Positions 1 to 21,855 of a stretch of DNA of 36,395 nt are shown one piece after another. Origin of the DNA: Thermodesulfobacteriota bacterium (lineage in GTDB: Bacteria > DASVDK01). Within the stretch, counting starts at the first letter, position 1. The number at the start of each line of letters is the position of its first letter. A model generated the notes under the pieces. It had not been told where the DNA came from. It did not search any database and worked only from the letters and a program-made list of their open reading frames with translations. The translations under genes were made by a program, and so were the position numbers. The DNA is taken from the NCBI GenBank assembly GCA_036381125.1, contig DASVDK010000237.1:1-36395 (forward strand). The letters run 5' to 3'.

Positions 1-472
1 CGAGCCGGATGCGGCCGTCGGGGTCGATCACGAACGCCCCGGGCAGGAGGAGGCTGTCACCGGCGGGTAGCCCTGCGATGTGCCCGCGAAGCGTGGCCGC
101 GAGGGCTCGCCGCAGGACCGCCAGGCCGAAGAGCTGGGCGAACCGGCCGTGCCTGAGCCCGTATGCCGCGTAGGCCCGGCCGGTCGGGTCGGCGAAGAGC
201 GGAAAGCCCGGCCGAAAGGCGGACTCGGCCCGCGCCGTCCGGGCGGCGTCGGCGGGACCGACGGCCGCCAGTCGGACGCGCCGCCGCTCGAACTCGCCGT
301 GCCGCTCCCGCAGCTCGCCGAGCTGCTCCTTGCAGAACGTTCAGCCGTAGTGCCTGAGGAAGACGAGCGCGGCGAAGTGGTCCTGCCACAGGCTGGCCAG
401 GTGCACCTCGCCTCCCGCCGTGTCGAGCACCACCGCGTCCGGCGCACGGTCGCGCACCGACAGCTCGCTCAT
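1..472 (-). CDS. Peroxiredoxin-like (AhpC/TSA, PRXL2/SelL-like) thioredoxin-fold protein, probable selenoprotein (UGA=Sec at codon 44); 3' end outside window
   Basis: GGGAGG RBS, then ATG at 472. Reads MSELSVRDRAPDAVVLDTAGGEVHLASLWQDHFAALVFLRHYG-TGA(343-341)-TFCKEQLGELRERH...FPLFADPTGRAYAAYGL...LPGAFVIDPDGRIRL, open to the window edge. FLRHxG[C/U]xxC, 'ADP...Y..YGL' and 'G.FVID.DG.I' are family motifs. Not in the ORF track. Confidence 0.9.
310..326 (-). promoter_or_regulatory. Putative bacterial SECIS hairpin for the Prx-like gene
   Basis: mRNA GCAGCUC-GGC-GAGCUGC: perfect 7-bp stem starting 15 nt after the UGA, with G in the apical loop. Confidence 0.7.
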
Positions 473-14217: not shown

Positions 14218-14814
14218 CTATCCCGCCCGCCGTCCCTCGGACGGCGCGGGCTCGCGGATGAAGGACGCTTTCATCGCCCAGAGGGTTCCCGGGTAGCGGT
14301 CGAGCAGCTCGTTCCACCCCTCCTTGAGCGCCTCCCCGCGCCCCGTCGCCCGGTAGCGGGCCACCGCGAGCCAGTAGAGCGCCTCCGGGGTCTGCGGCGA
14401 GACCGCCGCCTCGCGGGCGGCGCGCAGGCAGGCCGCCTCGGCGTCGGCGTAGCGCCGCTCGGCGAACGCCACCATCGCTTCGCCCAGCGCCAGCTCGACG
14501 AGGAACGCCTCCGGCTCGAGGTAGCCGGTCGAGGCGCGCACCAGCCGATCGTCGGGGGTCCGGAACTGGAAGGTCGGGGTCCAGACGGCGCCGAGCGCGC
14601 CGGCGACCTCCGACTGCTGCGTGAAGCTGACCTTCACCGGGACCATGCTCGCGAGCGCCTCGCGCACGCGGGGGTGTGGATACGTCACGGCATCCATTCG
14701 GGCGCAGCCGCCTCAGGTGGGGGCAAAGACGTCCACGAAGAGCAGCCGCCGCTCGCGGCGCGCTCGTTCGCGCGCCTCCTCGAGCGAGGCCGCCCAGGCG
14801 ATCGCATCGGCCAT
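14218..14814 (-). CDS. Thioredoxin-fold plus TPR-like protein, probable selenoprotein (UGA=Sec at codon 34, UGGC motif), 198 aa
   Basis: GAGGAGG RBS, ATG 14814: MADAIAWAASLEEARERARRERRLLFVDVFAPT-TGA(14715-14713)-GGCARMDAVTYPHPRV..., in frame with the tracked 14218..14697 ORF (cis-Pro WTPT; TPR-like PEALYWLAVARY). Confidence 0.9.
14677..14696 (-). promoter_or_regulatory. Putative bacterial SECIS hairpin for the Trx-TPR gene
   Basis: mRNA UGGAUGC-CGUGAC-GUAUCCA: 7-bp stem starting 17 nt after the UGA, built from codons unusual for this DNA (GAT, TAT, CCA). Confidence 0.7.
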
Positions 14815-15585: not shown

Positions 15586-16851
15586 ATGATGTCTCCGATC
15601 GCGCTCTCATCTCTGACGGCCCTCTCCGATGCCGACCTTCTCGCCCGGATCGCCCGGCTCGCGGCGCAGGAGCGCGAGGCAACCGTCGCGCTGATTGCGC
15701 ACCTCGTCGAACTCGACGCCCGGCGCCTCTACCTGGCCGAAGGCTACCCGTCGCTCTTCGCCTACTGCACGCAGGCCCTCCACCTCTCCGAGCATGCCGC
15801 GTACGGGCGGATCGAGGCGGCGCGCGCGGCGCGGCGCTTTCCCGTTATCCTCGAGCGCCTTGCCGGCGGGTCAATCACGCTCACGACGGTGACGCTCCTC
15901 GCGCCGCACCTCACGGTGGAGAATCATCGGGACCTGCTCGAGCAGGCCCGCCACAAGAGCCGGCGGGAGGTCGAGGCGCTGGTGGCGGCGCTCCGTCCCC
16001 AGCCGCCCGTGCCCACCTCGGTGCGCCGGCTGCCGGCACCACGGCCTGCGCCGGCCGTGCCCCTGTCACCGGCGGAGGCGGCGCTTCCCGACGCGTCTGG
16101 ACCGACCCCGCTCCTCCCCGCGACGGCGCCGCCCGCGATCGAAGCGGCGCCAGTGAGCCCCCCTCCCCCGATTCCAGCCTCCCAGGCGGCCGCGTCACCG
16201 CCGGCCCCCGAAGCGTCCGTAGCCGTGTCGGCGCTGACGCCGACGTCACCGGCGTCGACTGGCACTCCGACACCACCGACGCGATCGCCGGTCGTGGCCC
16301 CTCTGGCGCCCGACCGCTACAAGGTCCAGTTCACCGCGAGCGCCGAGACCTACGCCAGGCTACGGCAGGCGCAGGATCTCCTGCGCCACCAGATCCCCGA
16401 CGGCGACATTGCCCAGGTCCTCGACCGGGCCCTCACGGTCCTTGTCGAGACGCTCCTCAAGCAGAAGGTCGCCGCGACCGATCGACCGCGGGCGGGGACG
16501 CCCCCGAGGCCGGGCTCGCGCCACGTGCCGGCGGCGGTGAGGCGGGCGGTCTGGGCGCGCGACGGGGGACGGTGCGCCTTCGTGAGCCGGACTGGGCGCC
16601 GGTGTGCGGAGCGGGGCTTTCTCGAGTTCCACCACGTGCGGCCGTACGCAGAAGGCGGCCCGGCGACGGTCGAGAACATCGAGTTGCGCTGTCGGGCGCA
16701 CAACGGGTACGAAGCGGAGCGGGTGTTCGGCCCCCGGGGCGCGTCGCAGGTGCGGGAGCCGGCGGCCGTCTACGTCGCGGCTCGCCGGGTCGCCGCCTGG
16801 CGGCGAACTCGGTTCGAACCGAGTTGGGCCTCGGCCGGCCAGCCGCCGTAG
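15586..16851 (+). CDS. HNH endonuclease with N-terminal helical (DUF222-like) domain and Pro/Ala-rich linker
   Basis: C-terminal RHVPAAVRRAVWARDGGRCAF...C...LEFHHVRP..GG..TVENIELRCRAHN; N-terminal LSDADLL...LIAHLVELDARRLYL..GYPSLFAYC. Confidence 0.85.
   Translation: MMSPIALSSLTALSDADLLARIARLAAQEREATVALIAHLVELDARRLYLAEGYPSLFAYCTQALHLSEHAAYGRIEAARAARRFPVILERLAGGSITLTTVTLLAPHLTVENHRDLLEQARHKSRREVEALVAALRPQPPVPTSVRRLPAPRPAPAVPLSPAEAALPDASGPTPLLPATAPPAIEAAPVSPPPPIPASQAAASPPAPEASVAVSALTPTSPASTGTPTPPTRSPVVAPLAPDRYKVQFTASAETYARLRQAQDLLRHQIPDGDIAQVLDRALTVLVETLLKQKVAATDRPRAGTPPRPGSRHVPAAVRRAVWARDGGRCAFVSRTGRRCAERGFLEFHHVRPYAEGGPATVENIELRCRAHNGYEAERVFGPRGASQVREPAAVYVAARRVAAWRRTRFEPSWASAGQPP
16806..16825. 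repeat. HNH-associated perfect palindrome in the 3' end of the HNH ORF
   Basis: AACTCGGTTCGAACCGAGTT is its own reverse complement; followed by GGG. Confidence 0.88.
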
Positions 16852-17048
16852 AGCGCGAGGCCGGCTGGCTGAGAGGAGGTCCCTCGCGGCCCGGCAGTTC
16901 CTAACCGGCCCTCACTCAGAGCAGCCCGTTGTCGGCCAACACGTCCCAAGAGGACCGGTCGGGCAGCTTCATCGTCGGCGAGCGAGATCTCGAGCTTTCA
17001 ACTGGAAGATGCGGAATCGCGCGGGGAAGTAGTCCGTGCGGGACCGAA

Positions 17049-17077
17049 TTGACGGCGCGCGTCCGGGGCGCTACCGT
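17049..17077 (+). promoter_or_regulatory. Sigma70-type promoter of csoR-copA-copZ
   Basis: TTGACG, 17 nt, TACCGT. Confidence 0.65.
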
Positions 17078-17088
17078 CTCGCCTGCTT

Positions 17089-17109
17089 CCCCTCCCCCCT
17101 GGGGAGGGG
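17089..17109. promoter_or_regulatory. Putative CsoR operator
   Basis: CCCCTCCCC-CCT-GGGGAGGGG inverted repeat between the -10 box and the csoR RBS; CsoR operators are C-tract/G-tract pseudo-palindromes. Confidence 0.6.
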
Positions 17110-17124
17110 CGTTCGGAGGTTCGC

Positions 17125-17406
17125 GTGAAGGACGACGTTCGGCAGGATGTCGGCCGGCGGCTCAAGAGCGTGGCGGGACACGTCCACGGGGTCCTCAAGA
17201 TGGTCGAGGAGGACAAGTACTGCATCGATGTGATCCGCCAGATCGAGGCGGTCGAGCAGGCGCTCCACAAGGTGAAGCGGCAGCTCCTGGCCGGCCACCT
17301 CGACAGCTGCGTGACGACCGCCATCCGCAGCGAGAACGCCCGCGACCGCGAGCGGGTGCTCAAGGAGCTGCTCGAGGTCTACGACACGGAGCGACGCCTG
17401 AAGTGA
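17125..17406 (+). CDS. csoR: CsoR-family copper-sensing repressor
   Basis: [25 protein letters not shown]...HLDSCV (Cys/His/Cys Cu ligands); GGAGG RBS. Confidence 0.92.
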
Positions 17407-19775
17407 GCGTCCCGCGGGAGGTCGAGCTCGGCGTCACGGGGATGACCTGCGCCTCCTGCGTGCGCCGGATCGAGAAGGCCCTCTCGAAGGTGCCGGGGGT
17501 CGTCGAGGCGAGCGTCAACCTGGCCACGGAGCAGGCCCGCGTGGTCTACGACCCCGAGGCGGTCGACGTCGAGGCGCTCGAGCGCACCGTCGAGGCCGCC
17601 GGCTACGGGGTGCGCCGCGCGCCGGCCGGGGCCGCGGCCGGCGAGCCGGCCGACGCGTCGGCGGCGCGGGCGGCGGAAGCCGAGCGGGAGCTGGCCGACC
17701 TGCGGCGCCGGTGGGTCGCGAGCCTTGCCATCGGCGCCGCGATGATGGCGCTCATGTACCTGCCCGTACGCCCCGACACGGCCGTCGTCGCGCCGCTGCT
17801 GCTGATCGCGGCCACGGTGGTGCAGTTCTGGGCGGGCGGGCGCTTCTACCGGGCGGCGTGGGCGGCCGCGAGGCACGGCGCGACGAACATGAACACGCTC
17901 GTCGCGGTCGGCACCAGCGTCGCCTACGGCTACAGCGCCTTCGTGACCCTCTGGCCGCAGCTCGCCGAGCGGTGGGGCTTCCCCGTCCACCTCTACTACG
18001 AGACGTCCGTCGTCATCATCGCGCTCGTCCTCATGGGCCGGTGGCTCGAGGCGCGTGCCAGGACCCGCACGGGCGCCGCCATCGAGGCCCTCGTCCGGCT
18101 CCAGGCGAGGACCGCCCGCGTGATCCGTCACGGCGTCGAGCGCGACGTGCCGGTCGAGTCGGTGCGGCCGGGCGACCTCGTGCGCGTGCGGCCGGGCGAG
18201 ACGGTGCCGGTCGACGGCGTCGTTCGCGAGGGGCGCTCCTCGCTCGACGAGAGCATGCTCACCGGCGAGAGCCTCCCGGTCGAGAAGGGCCCCGGCGACA
18301 CGGTCATCGGCGCAACGCTCAACCGCACCGGCAGCTTCGTCTTCGAGGCGACGCGCGTCGGGCGCGACACCACGCTCGCCCAGATCGTCCGCCTGGTCGA
18401 GGAGGCGCAGGGCGGCAAGGCGCCGATGCAGCGGCTCGCCGACAGGATCTCCGGCTACTTCGTGCCGATCGTCCTCGTCCTCGCCGCCGTCACGTTCGCC
18501 GGCTGGCTCCTCCTCGGCCCGGAGCCGGCCCTGATCCCGGCCCTCACGGCGGCCATCGCGGTGCTCATCATCGCCTGTCCCTGCGCCCTCGGCCTCGCCA
18601 CGCCGACGGCCGTCATGGTCGGCACCGGCAAGGCGGCCGAGCTCGGCATCCTGATCCGCGGCGGCGAGGCGCTCGAGGCGGCGCGGCGCGTCGACACCGT
18701 CGTCCTCGACAAGACCGGCACGCTCACCCGCGGCAGGCCGGCGGTGACCCGGATCGTGACCGACGGCCTCCCGGAGGCGGCCCTGCTGCGCCTCGCGGCC
18801 GCGGTCGAGGTCGGCTCGGAGCACCCGCTCGGCGAGGCGGTCGTCACCCACGCGGCCGGGCTCGGCCTCGACCTGCCCCGCGCCGAGGCGTTCGAGTCGG
18901 TCCCCGGCAAGGGGGTGCGGGCCGTCGTGGAGGGACGTGCCGTCCTCCTCGGCAACCGCGCCCTCATGTCCGATGCGGGCATCGCCCTCGACGGCCTCGA
19001 CCGCCGCGCCGAGGCGCTCGCCCGCGGCGGCGAGACGCCGATGTACGTGGCGGTGGACGGCCGGGGGGTCGGCCTCGTCGGCGTCGCCGACACGCTCGGG
19101 CCGGGTTCGCGAGAGGCGGTGGCCGAGCTACGGGCCCTCGGCCTCGCGGTCGTCATGCTCACGGGCGACGCGCGCGCCACGGCCGAGGCGATCGCGGCCG
19201 AGGCGGGCATCGACGAGGTGCTGGCCGAGGTGCTGCCGCACGAGAAGGCCGAGGCGGTGAAGGCGCTCCAGGCGCGGGGCCGCGTGGTGGCGATGGTCGG
19301 CGACGGCGTCAACGACGCGCCCGCCCTCGCCCAGGCCGACCTCGGCGTCGCGATCGGCACCGGGACGGACGTGGCGCTCGCCGCGTCGGACGTGACGCTC
19401 GTCGGGGGGGACCTGCGCAACCTCGTCACGGCGATCGCGCTCTCCCGCAAGACCGTCGGCGTCATCGCGCAGGGGCTCTTCTGGGCGTTCGCCTACAACG
19501 CGATCCTCATCCCGGTCGCGATGGGGGCGCTCTACCCGGCCTTCGGCGTCCTGCTCGACCCGATGCTCGCCGCGGCGGCCATGGCGATGAGCAGCGTGAG
19601 CGTGGTCACCAACGCCCTGCGCCTGCGCGGCTTCCGGCGACCGGAGAGCGCGGAGGCGATCCTCGACCCGCCGCTCCGCGCGCGGGTGGCCGACTACGCG
19701 TACCTCGCCGGCATCGCGGCGGCCGCCCTGCTGGCCGGGGCCGTGGCGCTCGCGCTCGCGGCCGGCGGACACTGA
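17403..19775 (+). CDS. copA: Cu(I)-translocating P1B-type ATPase
   Basis: GTGA overlap with cso[46 protein letters not shown]. Confidence 0.95.
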
Positions 19776-19798: not shown

Positions 19799-20014
19799 AT
19801 GGCCACGGTCATCCTGAACGTACCCGACATCTCGTGCGGGCACTGCGAGCAGACGATCACCAGGGCGCTCGCGCCGGTGGACGGCGTGACGAGCGTCCGG
19901 GTCGACATCCCGGCGCGGCGCGTACACGTGGAGTACGACGAGCGCCGGGTCGACGTGGAGCGGATCTCGCGCGTCCTCGCCGAGGAGGACTACCCGGTCG
20001 CGGCCACCGAATAG
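19799..20014 (+). CDS. copZ: Copper chaperone (HMA domain)
   Basis: AGGAGG RBS; MATVILNVPDISCGHCEQTI (SCxxC), 71 aa. Confidence 0.9.
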   Translation: MATVILNVPDISCGHCEQTITRALAPVDGVTSVRVDIPARRVHVEYDERRVDVERISRVLAEEDYPVAATE

Positions 20015-20095
20015 ACGGAGGTGCCGCCCTCGTCTATGCTCTAGCCGGCGTCCCGGGGGCCGCCCGGGGCGCTGCCGACACCGATGGAGGTTCGA

Positions 20096-20629
20096 GTGCG
20101 CAGGTTGCCGTCTCTGGCCGCCGCCGTGGCGGCGGCGCTCCTCACGGGCGTCGCGCCCACCGTGGCGGACGAGCCCGTCCGCGTCGAGGGGCTGGCCGAC
20201 TGGCTGGCCGGGGCCCCGGGCCCCGACCACGCGGCCCGCGCCTACCCACAGTACGCGCAGCAGAAGCCGAGCACCCCCATCCGGCTCATGGGCGTGGCGA
20301 CGCTCATGGGGCGCCTGCGGCTCGGCGACAGGCCCTTCATCGTCGACGTGCGGACCTATCCGGAGTTCCTGGAGGCCCACCTGCCGGATGCGGTGAACAT
20401 CCCGCTCGCCGAGGTCGAGAAGCGGATCGGCGAGTTCCCCAGGCAGGGGACCGTCGTCCTCTACAGAGCGTGCCCCCACCACCTGGCCAGTTTGGCCAGC
20501 GAGAAGCTGTACAAGGCGGGGTACCGCAACATGTACGTCCTCGACGAGGGGATCCCGGGCTGGGCGCGGATGGGCTACCCCATCGAGCAGGGGCCGCCGA
20601 AGGCGCCGAGGCGCACCTCTCTCCGGTAG
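20096..20629 (+). CDS. Exported rhodanese-like protein; catalytic position encoded by AGA (Arg) instead of Cys/Sec
   Basis: GGAGG then GTG 20096; signal peptide; IVDVR..EF..AHLPDAVNIP, VVLY-R-ACP, VLDEGIPGW..GYP. Confidence 0.85.
   Translation: MRRLPSLAAAVAAALLTGVAPTVADEPVRVEGLADWLAGAPGPDHAARAYPQYAQQKPSTPIRLMGVATLMGRLRLGDRPFIVDVRTYPEFLEAHLPDAVNIPLAEVEKRIGEFPRQGTVVLYRACPHHLASLASEKLYKAGYRNMYVLDEGIPGWARMGYPIEQGPPKAPRRTSLR
20483..20499 (+). promoter_or_regulatory. SECIS-like hairpin downstream of the AGA codon in the rhodanese gene
   Basis: CUGGCCA-GUU-UGGCCAG: perfect 7-bp stem starting 16 nt after AGA (20465-20467), G-first loop, rare codons AGT and TTG. Confidence 0.55.
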
Positions 20630-20687
20630 TCGCGCCGACCCGGCCGACGTCCGCGGTCGATTCGTCGACTGCGGTGGCCGGCGCGAC
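20629..20687 (+). terminator. Large hairpin after the rhodanese stop (possible terminator or stabiliser)
   Basis: Inner CCGCGGTCGA-TTCG-TCGACTGCGG with outer GTCGCGC/GCGCGAC arms; no real U-tract. A TATAGT -10 box follows at 20711-20716. Confidence 0.45.
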
Positions 20688-20742
20688 ACTTCCGGTCCGG
20701 CGTTCGGCGCTATAGTGCCGGGAATCGACGGAGCCATTCCCG

Positions 20743-21855
20743 GTGAGCGCCTATCTCTCCATCCGCGGGCTGTCGCGACGCTTCGGCCCCGTGGCCGCCG
20801 TGGACGGACTCTCGCTCGACGTCCGGCACGGCGAGATGCTCTTCCTCCTCGGGCCGTCGGGCTGCGGCAAGTCGACGACGCTGCGTCTCGTGGCGGGCTA
20901 CGAGCGGGCCGACGGCGGATCGATCACGCTGGGCGGCCGGCCGCTCGACCCGGTGCCGGTCCACCGCCGCAACATCGGCATGGTCTTCCAGGACTACGCC
21001 CTCTTCCCCCACCGCACGGTCCTCGAGAACGTCGGCTTCGGCCTCAAGATGCGGGGCGTCCGGCCGGCCGAGCGCGACCGCCGCGCGCGCGCCGCGCTCG
21101 CCCAGGTGGACCTCGAGGGCCTCGAGGCGCGCTACCCCTGGCAGCTCTCCGGCGGGCAGCGCCAGCGGGTGGCGCTCGCCCGCGCCATCGTCTTCGAGCC
21201 CGACCTCCTGCTCCTCGACGAGCCGCTCGCGAGCCTCGACCGGCGGCTGCGCGACGCGGTGCGCCTCGAGCTGCGCGCGCTGCAGCGCCGGCTCGGCCTC
21301 ACCGCCATCTACGTCACGCACGACCAGGACGAGGCGCTCGAGATGGCCGACCGGATCGCGGTCATGGACCGGGGGCGCCTCGTGCAGGTCGGCACGCCGT
21401 CGGAGGTCTACAACGCGCCGGCCACCGGCTACGTGGCGGCCTTCCTCGGCGACGCGAGCCGCTTCGCCGGCCGCCTCGTGGTCGCCGACCGCGGCGCCGA
21501 GGTCGTCACCGACGGCGGCCTGCGACTGCGCGTGCCGCGCACGCCCGGCATCGGCCCGGGCGACCGCGTGGAGGTCTACCTGCGCCCCGAGCGGGTCCGG
21601 ATCGCGCGCGAGGGCGAGGACCGGGCGCCGGCCGGCGCGCGATCGACCGGGGGGACCGACCGCTTCGGCGGCGTCGTCGAGACGGTCGCCTATCACGGCG
21701 CCGGCGTCTCGTACCACGTGCGCCTCGACGGGGGCGGCCGCGTCGTCGCGCGCGAGCCGATCCCGGGCGGCGCCCCCCGGCTCGCGTCGGGCGACCGGGT
21801 CGTCGTCGCGTGGGCTCCCGAGCAACTCACGGTCGTCAAGGAGAGCGACGCATGA
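20743..21855 (+). CDS. ABC transporter ATP-binding protein (PotA-like)
   Basis: GPSGCGKST, VFQDYALFPH, LSGGQRQR, LLLDEPL, YVTHDQDEA, C-terminal TOBE-like region. Confidence 0.92.
   Translation: MSAYLSIRGLSRRFGPVAAVDGLSLDVRHGEMLFLLGPSGCGKSTTLRLVAGYERADGGSITLGGRPLDPVPVHRRNIGMVFQDYALFPHRTVLENVGFGLKMRGVRPAERDRRARAALAQVDLEGLEARYPWQLSGGQRQRVALARAIVFEPDLLLLDEPLASLDRRLRDAVRLELRALQRRLGLTAIYVTHDQDEALEMADRIAVMDRGRLVQVGTPSEVYNAPATGYVAAFLGDASRFAGRLVVADRGAEVVTDGGLRLRVPRTPGIGPGDRVEVYLRPERVRIAREGEDRAPAGARSTGGTDRFGGVVETVAYHGAGVSYHVRLDGGGRVVAREPIPGGAPRLASGDRVVVAWAPEQLTVVKESDA

Follow-up and report, generated by a model that had tools for sequence, protein, structure and literature searches.

An AGA codon in the active site of a predicted exported rhodanese: a probable UGA-selenocysteine gene with a one-base oddity in the deposited contig

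Does an arginine codon at the catalytic position of a bacterial rhodanese record the loss of selenocysteine (Sec, U), hide an error in one assembly, or encode Sec in a new way? The question is raised by contig DASVDK010000237.1 of the Thermodesulfobacteriota assembly GCA_036381125.1, of which positions 1 to 36,395 of the forward strand were analysed (hereafter the window, 36,395 nt). A sequence-only reading of the window had noted that its rhodanese gene carries AGA where rhodaneses have the catalytic Cys directly after Tyr, followed by a hairpin resembling a selenocysteine insertion sequence (SECIS), and had left three explanations standing: a recent Sec-to-Arg loss, an assembly error, or Sec insertion at AGA. 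From comparison with relatives and with other assemblies we conclude, at a probability of about 0.9, that this is a normal UGA-Sec selenoprotein gene and that the A at position 20465 is peculiar to the deposited contig, with no sign of a new code.

The features of the locus are given in Table 1. Translated from its ATG, the open reading frame (ORF) scores 52.5 bits against PF00581 (cut-off 22.2, E 7.4e-14); the NCBI gene call uses a GTG start at 20096 and yields a protein of 177 aa (P0023). The AGA is, as had been claimed, in frame at codon 128 (ctc tac AGA gcg tgc ccc cac), giving the peptide VVLY-R-A-C-P. That this is the catalytic position is supported by phmmer alignments to solved rhodaneses, in which residue 128 of the orthologue from a second genome of the same genus (G001) coincides with the catalytic Cys after Tyr of 6mxv and 3tp9. 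It is also the position of the active-site loop in an AlphaFold2 model built from a 38-sequence alignment (mean predicted local distance difference test score, pLDDT, of 77), where residue 128 directly follows strand 124–127 and precedes helix 133–144. The model has a rhodanese fold with pLDDT >90 over residues 60–165, and its top Foldseek matches in the PDB are all rhodaneses (e.g. 3tp9 at E 7.5e-7). Two hallmarks are absent from the window copy itself: the catalytic Cys or Sec at the start of the loop, which is Arg128 here and Sec in the relatives, and the in-frame UGA at the conserved redox position, which is AGA. The claim that AGA is rare in this DNA also held, as the codon makes up 410 of 719,033 codons genome-wide (0.57 per 1000, or 0.6% of Arg codons), counted over 1,880 long ORFs with a coding G+C pattern.

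Table 1. Features of the rhodanese locus and of other genes in the window (positions in the window; strand + or −).
Feature	Position	Strand	Remarks
Rhodanese gene, predicted exported, single-domain	20084..20629	+	181 aa from ATG; L-Y-U-A-C-P-H-H selenoprotein family; PF00581
Signal-peptide-like N-terminus, residues 1–28	20084..20167	+	RR motif, hydrophobic stretch, V-A end before D-E; read by eye
Codon 128, catalytic position	20465..20467	+	AGA in the deposit; TGA in the Logan contigs of 4/4 runs, in G001 and at all true family loci
TGC, Cys130, Sec partner in U-x-C	20471..20473	+	Invariant in the 38-sequence alignment
SECIS upper stem-loop	20483..20499	+	7 bp in the window and G001, 5 bp in the wider family; GUY loop
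Thioredoxin-like selenoprotein gene	14218..14814	−	TGA at 14715–14713, APT-U-GG-C; hairpin 17 nt downstream
AhpC/TSA-like selenoprotein gene, running off the window start	2..472	−	TGA at 343–341, YG-U-TFC; hairpin 15 nt downstream
CopA-type P1B ATPase with heavy-metal-associated (HMA) domain	16929..19775	+	Pfam E1-E2_ATPase, Hydrolase and HMA on 17400–19772; start uncertain
CopZ-like heavy-metal-associated protein, 71 aa	19799..20014	+	PF00403, E 5.4e-15; directly upstream of the rhodanese

What, then, do other assemblies read at codon 128? The closest is a Logan contig of sequencing run X1 (1075 nt, depth ~10), which over positions 19900–20872 has the same base as the window at 972 of 973 sites; the sole difference is position 20465, an A in the window and a T in the contig, so that the codon becomes TGA. 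Run X1 contains 85% of the window's sampled words. A T at 20465 is likewise found in runs X2, X5 and X7, which represent diverged relatives with 31–75 other differing letters over the gene, and TGA therefore stands at codon 128 in all four runs, from four studies, for which Logan contigs over 19900–20900 were examined. The evidence from the runs consists of these contigs rather than raw reads, and rare variants drop out of contigs. A Logan protein of 123 aa ending in VVLY (P0001) is the gene call on the 1075-nt contig of X1. The public deposit does contain the A, as P0023 shows: this NCBI protein, identified on the deposited contig by exact-sequence look-up, reads VVLYRACPHH; an alteration of the window as opposed to the public record was ruled out, since NCBI's 177-aa protein has the Arg.

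Relatives at increasing distance give the same answer. The genome G001, the sole close relative among 60 other genomes searched, has a locus collinear with the window (94.6% identity over 4976 nt) that reads TAC TGA GCG TGC and then the same hairpin. A degenerate DNA pattern for V-L-Y-x-A-C-P-H-H, with the test codon left as NNN, was run on two public collections and returned 180 matches, comprising at least 120 metagenome loci and 60 genome loci, and 170 of these have TGA at the test codon. The other ten carry CGA (two matches) or ACT, ACC, GAG, CTT, TGC, GGC, GCG or CAA (one each); they were rejected as family members, being unrelated sequence with no family residues around the motif. Every true family locus recovered with this pattern (170/170) thus uses TGA.

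Protein-level searches are consistent with a stop codon at this site. A search of a protein collection gave 18 matches, of which four are distant full-length rhodaneses (26–31% identity) and 14 are close homologues (54–99% identity); all 14 of the latter end exactly at ...LY, meaning that the gene callers met a stop after the Tyr. A peptide scan derived from the alignment found no relative in metagenome contigs, while two peptide scans of genome contigs recovered the G001 locus and, in one of them, also a distant rhodanese locus (L015, 35% identity). When 1.84 billion representatives were searched with a profile, the matches were mostly multi-domain rhodaneses, and ten of the 150 listed proteins were examined: P0066, P0111, P0134 and P0189 have Cys at position 128 and again at +2, P0106 has C-A-T at the motif, P0097, P0128, P0151 and P0152 stop at LY, and Arg at position 128 occurs in none of the ten. 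Thiol-only C-x-C-P forms among distant members are usual for a Sec/Cys family. The tenth, P0060 (157 aa, full-length), has G-N-R where others have U/C-A-C; its loop lacks both Sec and Cys, and it may represent a natural variant of the family that is inactive or has taken on another role.

Taken together, these comparisons indicate that at 20465 the A is derived and not a property of the lineage or its code. Strong support for a UGA-Sec ancestor, as had been proposed, comes from the TGA in G001, in all four runs and at all 170 family loci, and from the conservation of the hairpin as a SECIS (see below). Close homologues compared at nucleotide level have TGA and the hairpin, not an Arg codon of the CGN type and not a plain Cys. 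It had been said that reads with TGA would make this an ordinary third selenoprotein of the window, and as far as contigs show that is the case, the independent, 972/973-identical assembly of the same strain having TGA.

The hairpin itself is as it had been described: CTGGCCA (20483–20489), a GTT loop and TGGCCAG (20493–20499) form a perfect 7-bp stem starting 16 nt past the codon. Comparable hairpins at +15 and +17 of two UGA genes were likewise confirmed, both on the minus strand. On its own the window hairpin is weak evidence, as a perfect 7-bp hairpin (3–7 nt loop, 10–25 nt downstream) can be found at 3.1% of positions in this 75% G+C window, and its fold, with a z-score of only −1.84, is matched by 10 of 200 shuffles; Rfam at gathering scores gave no match in the window. 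Conservation was assessed in 168 family segments of 84 nt, 143 of them distinct. Across the 143, third-codon positions within the hairpin are almost fixed: +17 is C in 141 (the search pattern permitted C or T), +20 is G in 142, +23 is C in 142, and +26 (T) and +29 (G) are invariant. The Ser codon in the hairpin is AGT in 139 segments, the remaining four having GGT (Gly). Third positions beyond the hairpin are free (+5: 57 G, 37 A, 30 T and 19 C; +41: 70 T, 41 G, 18 C and 14 A). Where the stem varies, it tends to keep its pairs: pair 20–32 is G-C in 124 segments, G-U in 18 and A-U in one, pair 24–28 is A-U in 139 and G-U in four, and pair 23–29 is C-G in 142, with a single G-G that is the sole unpaired variant. 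The stem varies too little for covariation to be tested, and synonymous-site conservation and pair-keeping variants were used instead. Both point to an RNA-level constraint atop the protein code, as for a SelB-binding element, and on this pattern the family hairpin is, in all likelihood, a real SECIS. The longer stem in the window and G001 is due to a Ser (AGC) where other members have Tyr.

Could the genome of the window (G000) insert Sec, and with which anticodon? It encodes SelA (577 bits), SelB (339 bits) and SelD (351 bits), all above their cut-offs, and its SelD carries an in-frame TGA of its own. The gene for tRNA-Sec, selC, was not found in its 382 contigs (96% complete): tRNA-SeC is not among the 54 calls of ARAGORN, the best RF01852 match (46.4 bits, threshold 47) coincides with the ARAGORN call of a tRNA-Ser(tga), blastn with the selC of G001 retrieved no orthologue (best 29 bits, E ~1), and Rfam gave no match on the contigs of SelA, SelB and SelD. 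The sel genes are spread over separate contigs, that of SelA (C292) being just 2008 nt long, which makes a gap in the assembly the likeliest reason for the missing selC. In G001 the tRNA-SeC is normal, with anticodon tca (71.7 bits). AGA has an ordinary reader in G000, a 77-nt tRNA-Arg(tct) called by ARAGORN, and none of the 54 calls, made on an assembly that is incomplete and lacks any selC, combines a UCU anticodon with unusual length or tRNA-Sec-like features. The idea of a tRNA-Sec with a non-UGA anticodon was not borne out, with no UCU variant among the calls for G000 and UCA in G001. The Sec positions examined, namely those of SelD and of the two other selenoprotein genes in the window, use TGA, AGA at other Sec sites not having been searched exhaustively; the intact TGA of the thioredoxin-like gene shows that UGA-Sec is in use in the window itself.

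What remains is the nature of the A. In the mechanism we propose, SelB and tRNA-Sec(UCA) would deliver Sec to UGA128 with the help of the hairpin that starts 16 nt past the codon; should the A be real, AGA128 would be read as Arg by the ordinary tRNA-Arg(UCU), the catalytic selenol would be lost, and the Arg128 product would probably be inactive. We lean towards such a real Sec128Arg allele, one so very young that its intact SECIS would not have had time to decay. Assembler paths need several reads, and two assemblies of one read set would normally agree, so that the A was probably common in the source reads. The same reasoning bears on the possibility, which we rate lower but take seriously, that the A is a pure artefact, a consensus or sequence-specific base-call error in an organism that has only TGA: de Bruijn assemblers normally discard k-mers that occur only once and take the path of higher coverage, which suggests that several reads had the A, and the deposit does carry it, as P0023 attests. 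An error would fit the otherwise identical X1 contig with its T, and a G+C-rich inverted repeat with GGC motifs is only 16 nt away; such repeats are a known context for strand-specific Illumina errors. Of the three explanations offered by the sequence-only reading, recent loss and assembly error therefore both stand, and Sec insertion at AGA is without support. A fixed fossil, with Sec lost for good in the lineage and the gene decaying or in a new role, would agree with the Arg of the deposit and with the existence of a member that has neither Sec nor Cys (P0060), yet we regard it as improbable, since the 972/973-identical contig and the same-genus G001 both have TGA, and the ORF, Cys130 and SECIS have undergone no other change, which speaks against a fixed loss. 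About equally improbable is a real Arg allele that still functions with Cys130 as nucleophile, for instance as an adaptation to selenium scarcity. Cys130 is invariant and thiol-only C-x-C forms exist in the family, but those forms keep Cys at position 128, where the ten examined profile matches of the 150 listed have no Arg, and AGA is the one-step product of TGA and not an Arg codon that this genome prefers; rescue of the Arg128 protein by Cys130 is possible but unsupported.

Sec insertion at AGA, through SelB, the SECIS and a UCU-bearing tRNA-Sec or allo-tRNA whose selC would lie in the unassembled part of the genome, is the most novel and the least likely of the explanations and in our judgement highly improbable. 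The SECIS is intact and correctly spaced, the missing selC leaves its anticodon unseen, and tRNAs of unusual cloverleaf with anticodons for AGA/AGG are described in PMC5389517. Set against this, the same strain has TGA in another assembly, G001 has tRNA-SeC(tca), the only candidate reader among the 54 ARAGORN calls is the normal 77-nt tRNA-Arg(tct), the near-threshold RF01852 match sits on a tRNA-Ser, SelD and the two other window genes use TGA, and AGA occurs 410 times in ordinary ORFs. If it were true, AGA128 would be a natural sense-codon Sec site. Some points weigh against our conclusion of a normal UGA-Sec gene with an A confined to the deposit. With selC missing, the anticodon in this genome has not been seen directly; contigs hide the share of A and T per sample, so that a real allele and an error are inseparable in them; X1, with 85% of the sampled words, is possibly not the source sample of the metagenome-assembled genome (MAG); and the only difference in 973 bases strikes the first base of the Sec codon, which looks non-random. 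The last point is best explained by ascertainment, the window having been flagged for that very oddity, although this is an argument and not a test. A normal UGA-Sec gene remains the reading that we prefer, and the gene is then a further Sec-containing rhodanese, of a known kind, with a one-base oddity in the deposit. There is no evidence here for new Sec coding, the appearance of which was given by a one-base state in one deposited contig. The deposit conceals a selenoprotein behind an Arg codon, and the Arg allele, if real, would be a natural Sec-null variant. Most of the value of the locus lies not in the AGA codon but in the mis-annotated, copper-linked UxC family to which it leads.

Complete ORFs, mostly of 154–160 aa, can be read from 149 of the 170 true family loci. 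They share a signal-peptide-like start, the conserved DPSKYP(E/Q)FAQQ and then ...VLY-U-ACPHHLASLAYG..., and their N-termini have the same layout as that of the window protein, with an A-x-A end before DPSKYP. The family recurs widely across soil MAGs, whose labels include Binatia, Methylomirabilota/Rokubacteria, delta-proteobacteria and Syntrophobacter. Public gene calls stop at the Sec codon, giving proteins of ~110–130 aa instead of 155–181 (P0026, P0027, P0002–P0014, P0097, P0128, P0151 and P0152); at JGI, C-terminal pieces have been called separately (P0024 and P0025), and the NCBI orthologue in G001, a “rhodanese-like domain-containing protein” of 123 aa, ends at the Sec codon too. The family is systematically mis-annotated in public protein sets.

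Among curated families, NF041203 “rhodanese_LYCAU” is the best-scoring one for the window protein and for all four family members tested, but its cut-off of 115 bits is not reached by the window protein (46.6) or by the four members (52.0–60.7, with Sec read as Cys). Both have a single rhodanese domain with the motif after L-Y and a Sec/Cys pair two residues apart. The order of the motif is mirrored, U-A-C in this family as opposed to C-A-U in NF041203, and this family differs further in its signal peptide, the conserved (K/A)YP(E/Q)(F/Y)AQQ and the P-H-H after the Cys. Small, predicted-exported, single-domain rhodaneses of the PspE type (NF007627, TIGR02981) are similar in architecture and give weak matches, with scores far under the cut-offs; they have a Cys loop with Arg/Ser/Thr where this family has U-A-C-P-H, and the copper and thiol-redox gene neighbourhood sets the family apart from them. 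Natural recoding of Sec to non-UGA codons has reportedly been described by Mukai et al. in 2016, a study cited in PMC5389517, which also treats allo-tRNAs. The window resembles such cases in having a SECIS-like hairpin behind a non-UGA codon at a Sec position, and differs in that no matching tRNA was found, that the relatives and the same strain have UGA, and that a single site in one assembly is concerned. The accessible part of PMC7609411 holds nothing bearing on Sec at sense codons.

Sec-rhodaneses have been classified before, and NF041203 corresponds to “form 3, CxU”, a rhodanese-related (seleno)protein, in the portion available of a 2026 review (PMC13188914). Five forms are listed there: UxxS, UxxG, CxU, UxxG and UxxxxU (TsoB). 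Forms 1, 2 and 4 and TsoB likewise have UGA-Sec at the catalytic Cys position of PF00581, with UxxS, UxxG or UxxxxU motifs as against U-A-C-P here. UxC is absent from these five forms, compared by motif and not by sequence, and the UxC rhodanese may thus be an uncatalogued Sec-rhodanese form. According to the same portion of the review, the bacterial SECIS is a stem-loop just downstream of the UGA that binds SelB (PMC13188914). The family hairpin resembles it in its place within the coding sequence, 16 nt past the codon, in a loop starting with G-U and in a nucleotide conservation that overrides synonymous freedom. It differs in its short upper stem (5 bp in most members, 7 bp here), its three-base loop and the lack of an Rfam match.

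The gene neighbourhood offers a hint at the role of the family. Neighbours were counted on the same strand and at eligible loci, i.e. those with enough flanking DNA. In the main branch, the gene immediately preceding the rhodanese encodes a VKOR-family protein with a thioredoxin-like part (CPHC) in 107 of 119 loci, SCO1/SenC occurs in 84 of 94 and a second SCO1 in 49 of 57, DUF4382 in 27 of 72, a Cox11/CtaG-like protein in 20 of 43, and QueC downstream in 97 of 116. The full row reads Cox11/CtaG-like, SCO1/SenC, DUF4382, SCO1/SenC, VKOR with thioredoxin-like end, Sec-rhodanese, QueC; examples can be seen in L122 (90–3824, + strand) and L064 (3050–4257, − strand), among the family loci L037–L216. 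The 12 loci without VKOR belong to a Rokubacteria/Methylomirabilota branch and to the clade of the window, and in the window and G001 the upstream genes are instead the CopA-type ATPase and the CopZ-like HMA protein. Both settings would suggest a role in the periplasm, in handling copper or assembling cuproenzymes, with a coupling to thiol redox. In the U-A-C-P-H-H loop the selenol is two residues from the invariant Cys and beside two invariant His, which suggests that an extracytoplasmic rhodanese scaffold carries a putative U128/C130 selenenylsulfide redox couple or else a site for soft metals. From the copper and thiol-redox neighbours comes a testable hypothesis, namely that the protein takes part in a selenol/thiol step in the periplasm during copper handling or the assembly of cuproenzymes.

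Beyond this locus, G000 looks rich in selenoproteins, judging by a crude genome-wide screen that gave 152 TGA sites flanked by a coding pattern. A separate TGA screen by long stop-to-stop ORFs with high third-position G+C returned shadow frames and adjacent genes and was dropped for a stricter flank test. By eye, at least 15 of the 152 sites have typical redox motifs in their flanking peptides, among them genes resembling those for peroxiredoxin, thioredoxin, AhpD and GrdB; the comparison with family models covered SelD and the two window genes only. Candidate sites include C107:3146 (−) and C53:16681 (−), among others. One candidate gene is rhodanese-like with “VFYCGUP”, a C-x-U order as in NF041203, and another is thioredoxin-like with “YWUPAC”, resembling the thioredoxin part of the VKOR fusions adjacent to the family.

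A minor element of the window lies at 16738–16840 (+), where ARAGORN calls a 95-nt “tRNA-Arg(acg)” that has no Rfam match at gathering scores. The call overlaps a ~55-nt element with a T-arm-like stem-loop (16786–16840), which is also present on other contigs of G000 (eight listed by blastn) and beside selC in G001, and is probably no tRNA gene but a repeat of tRNA origin.

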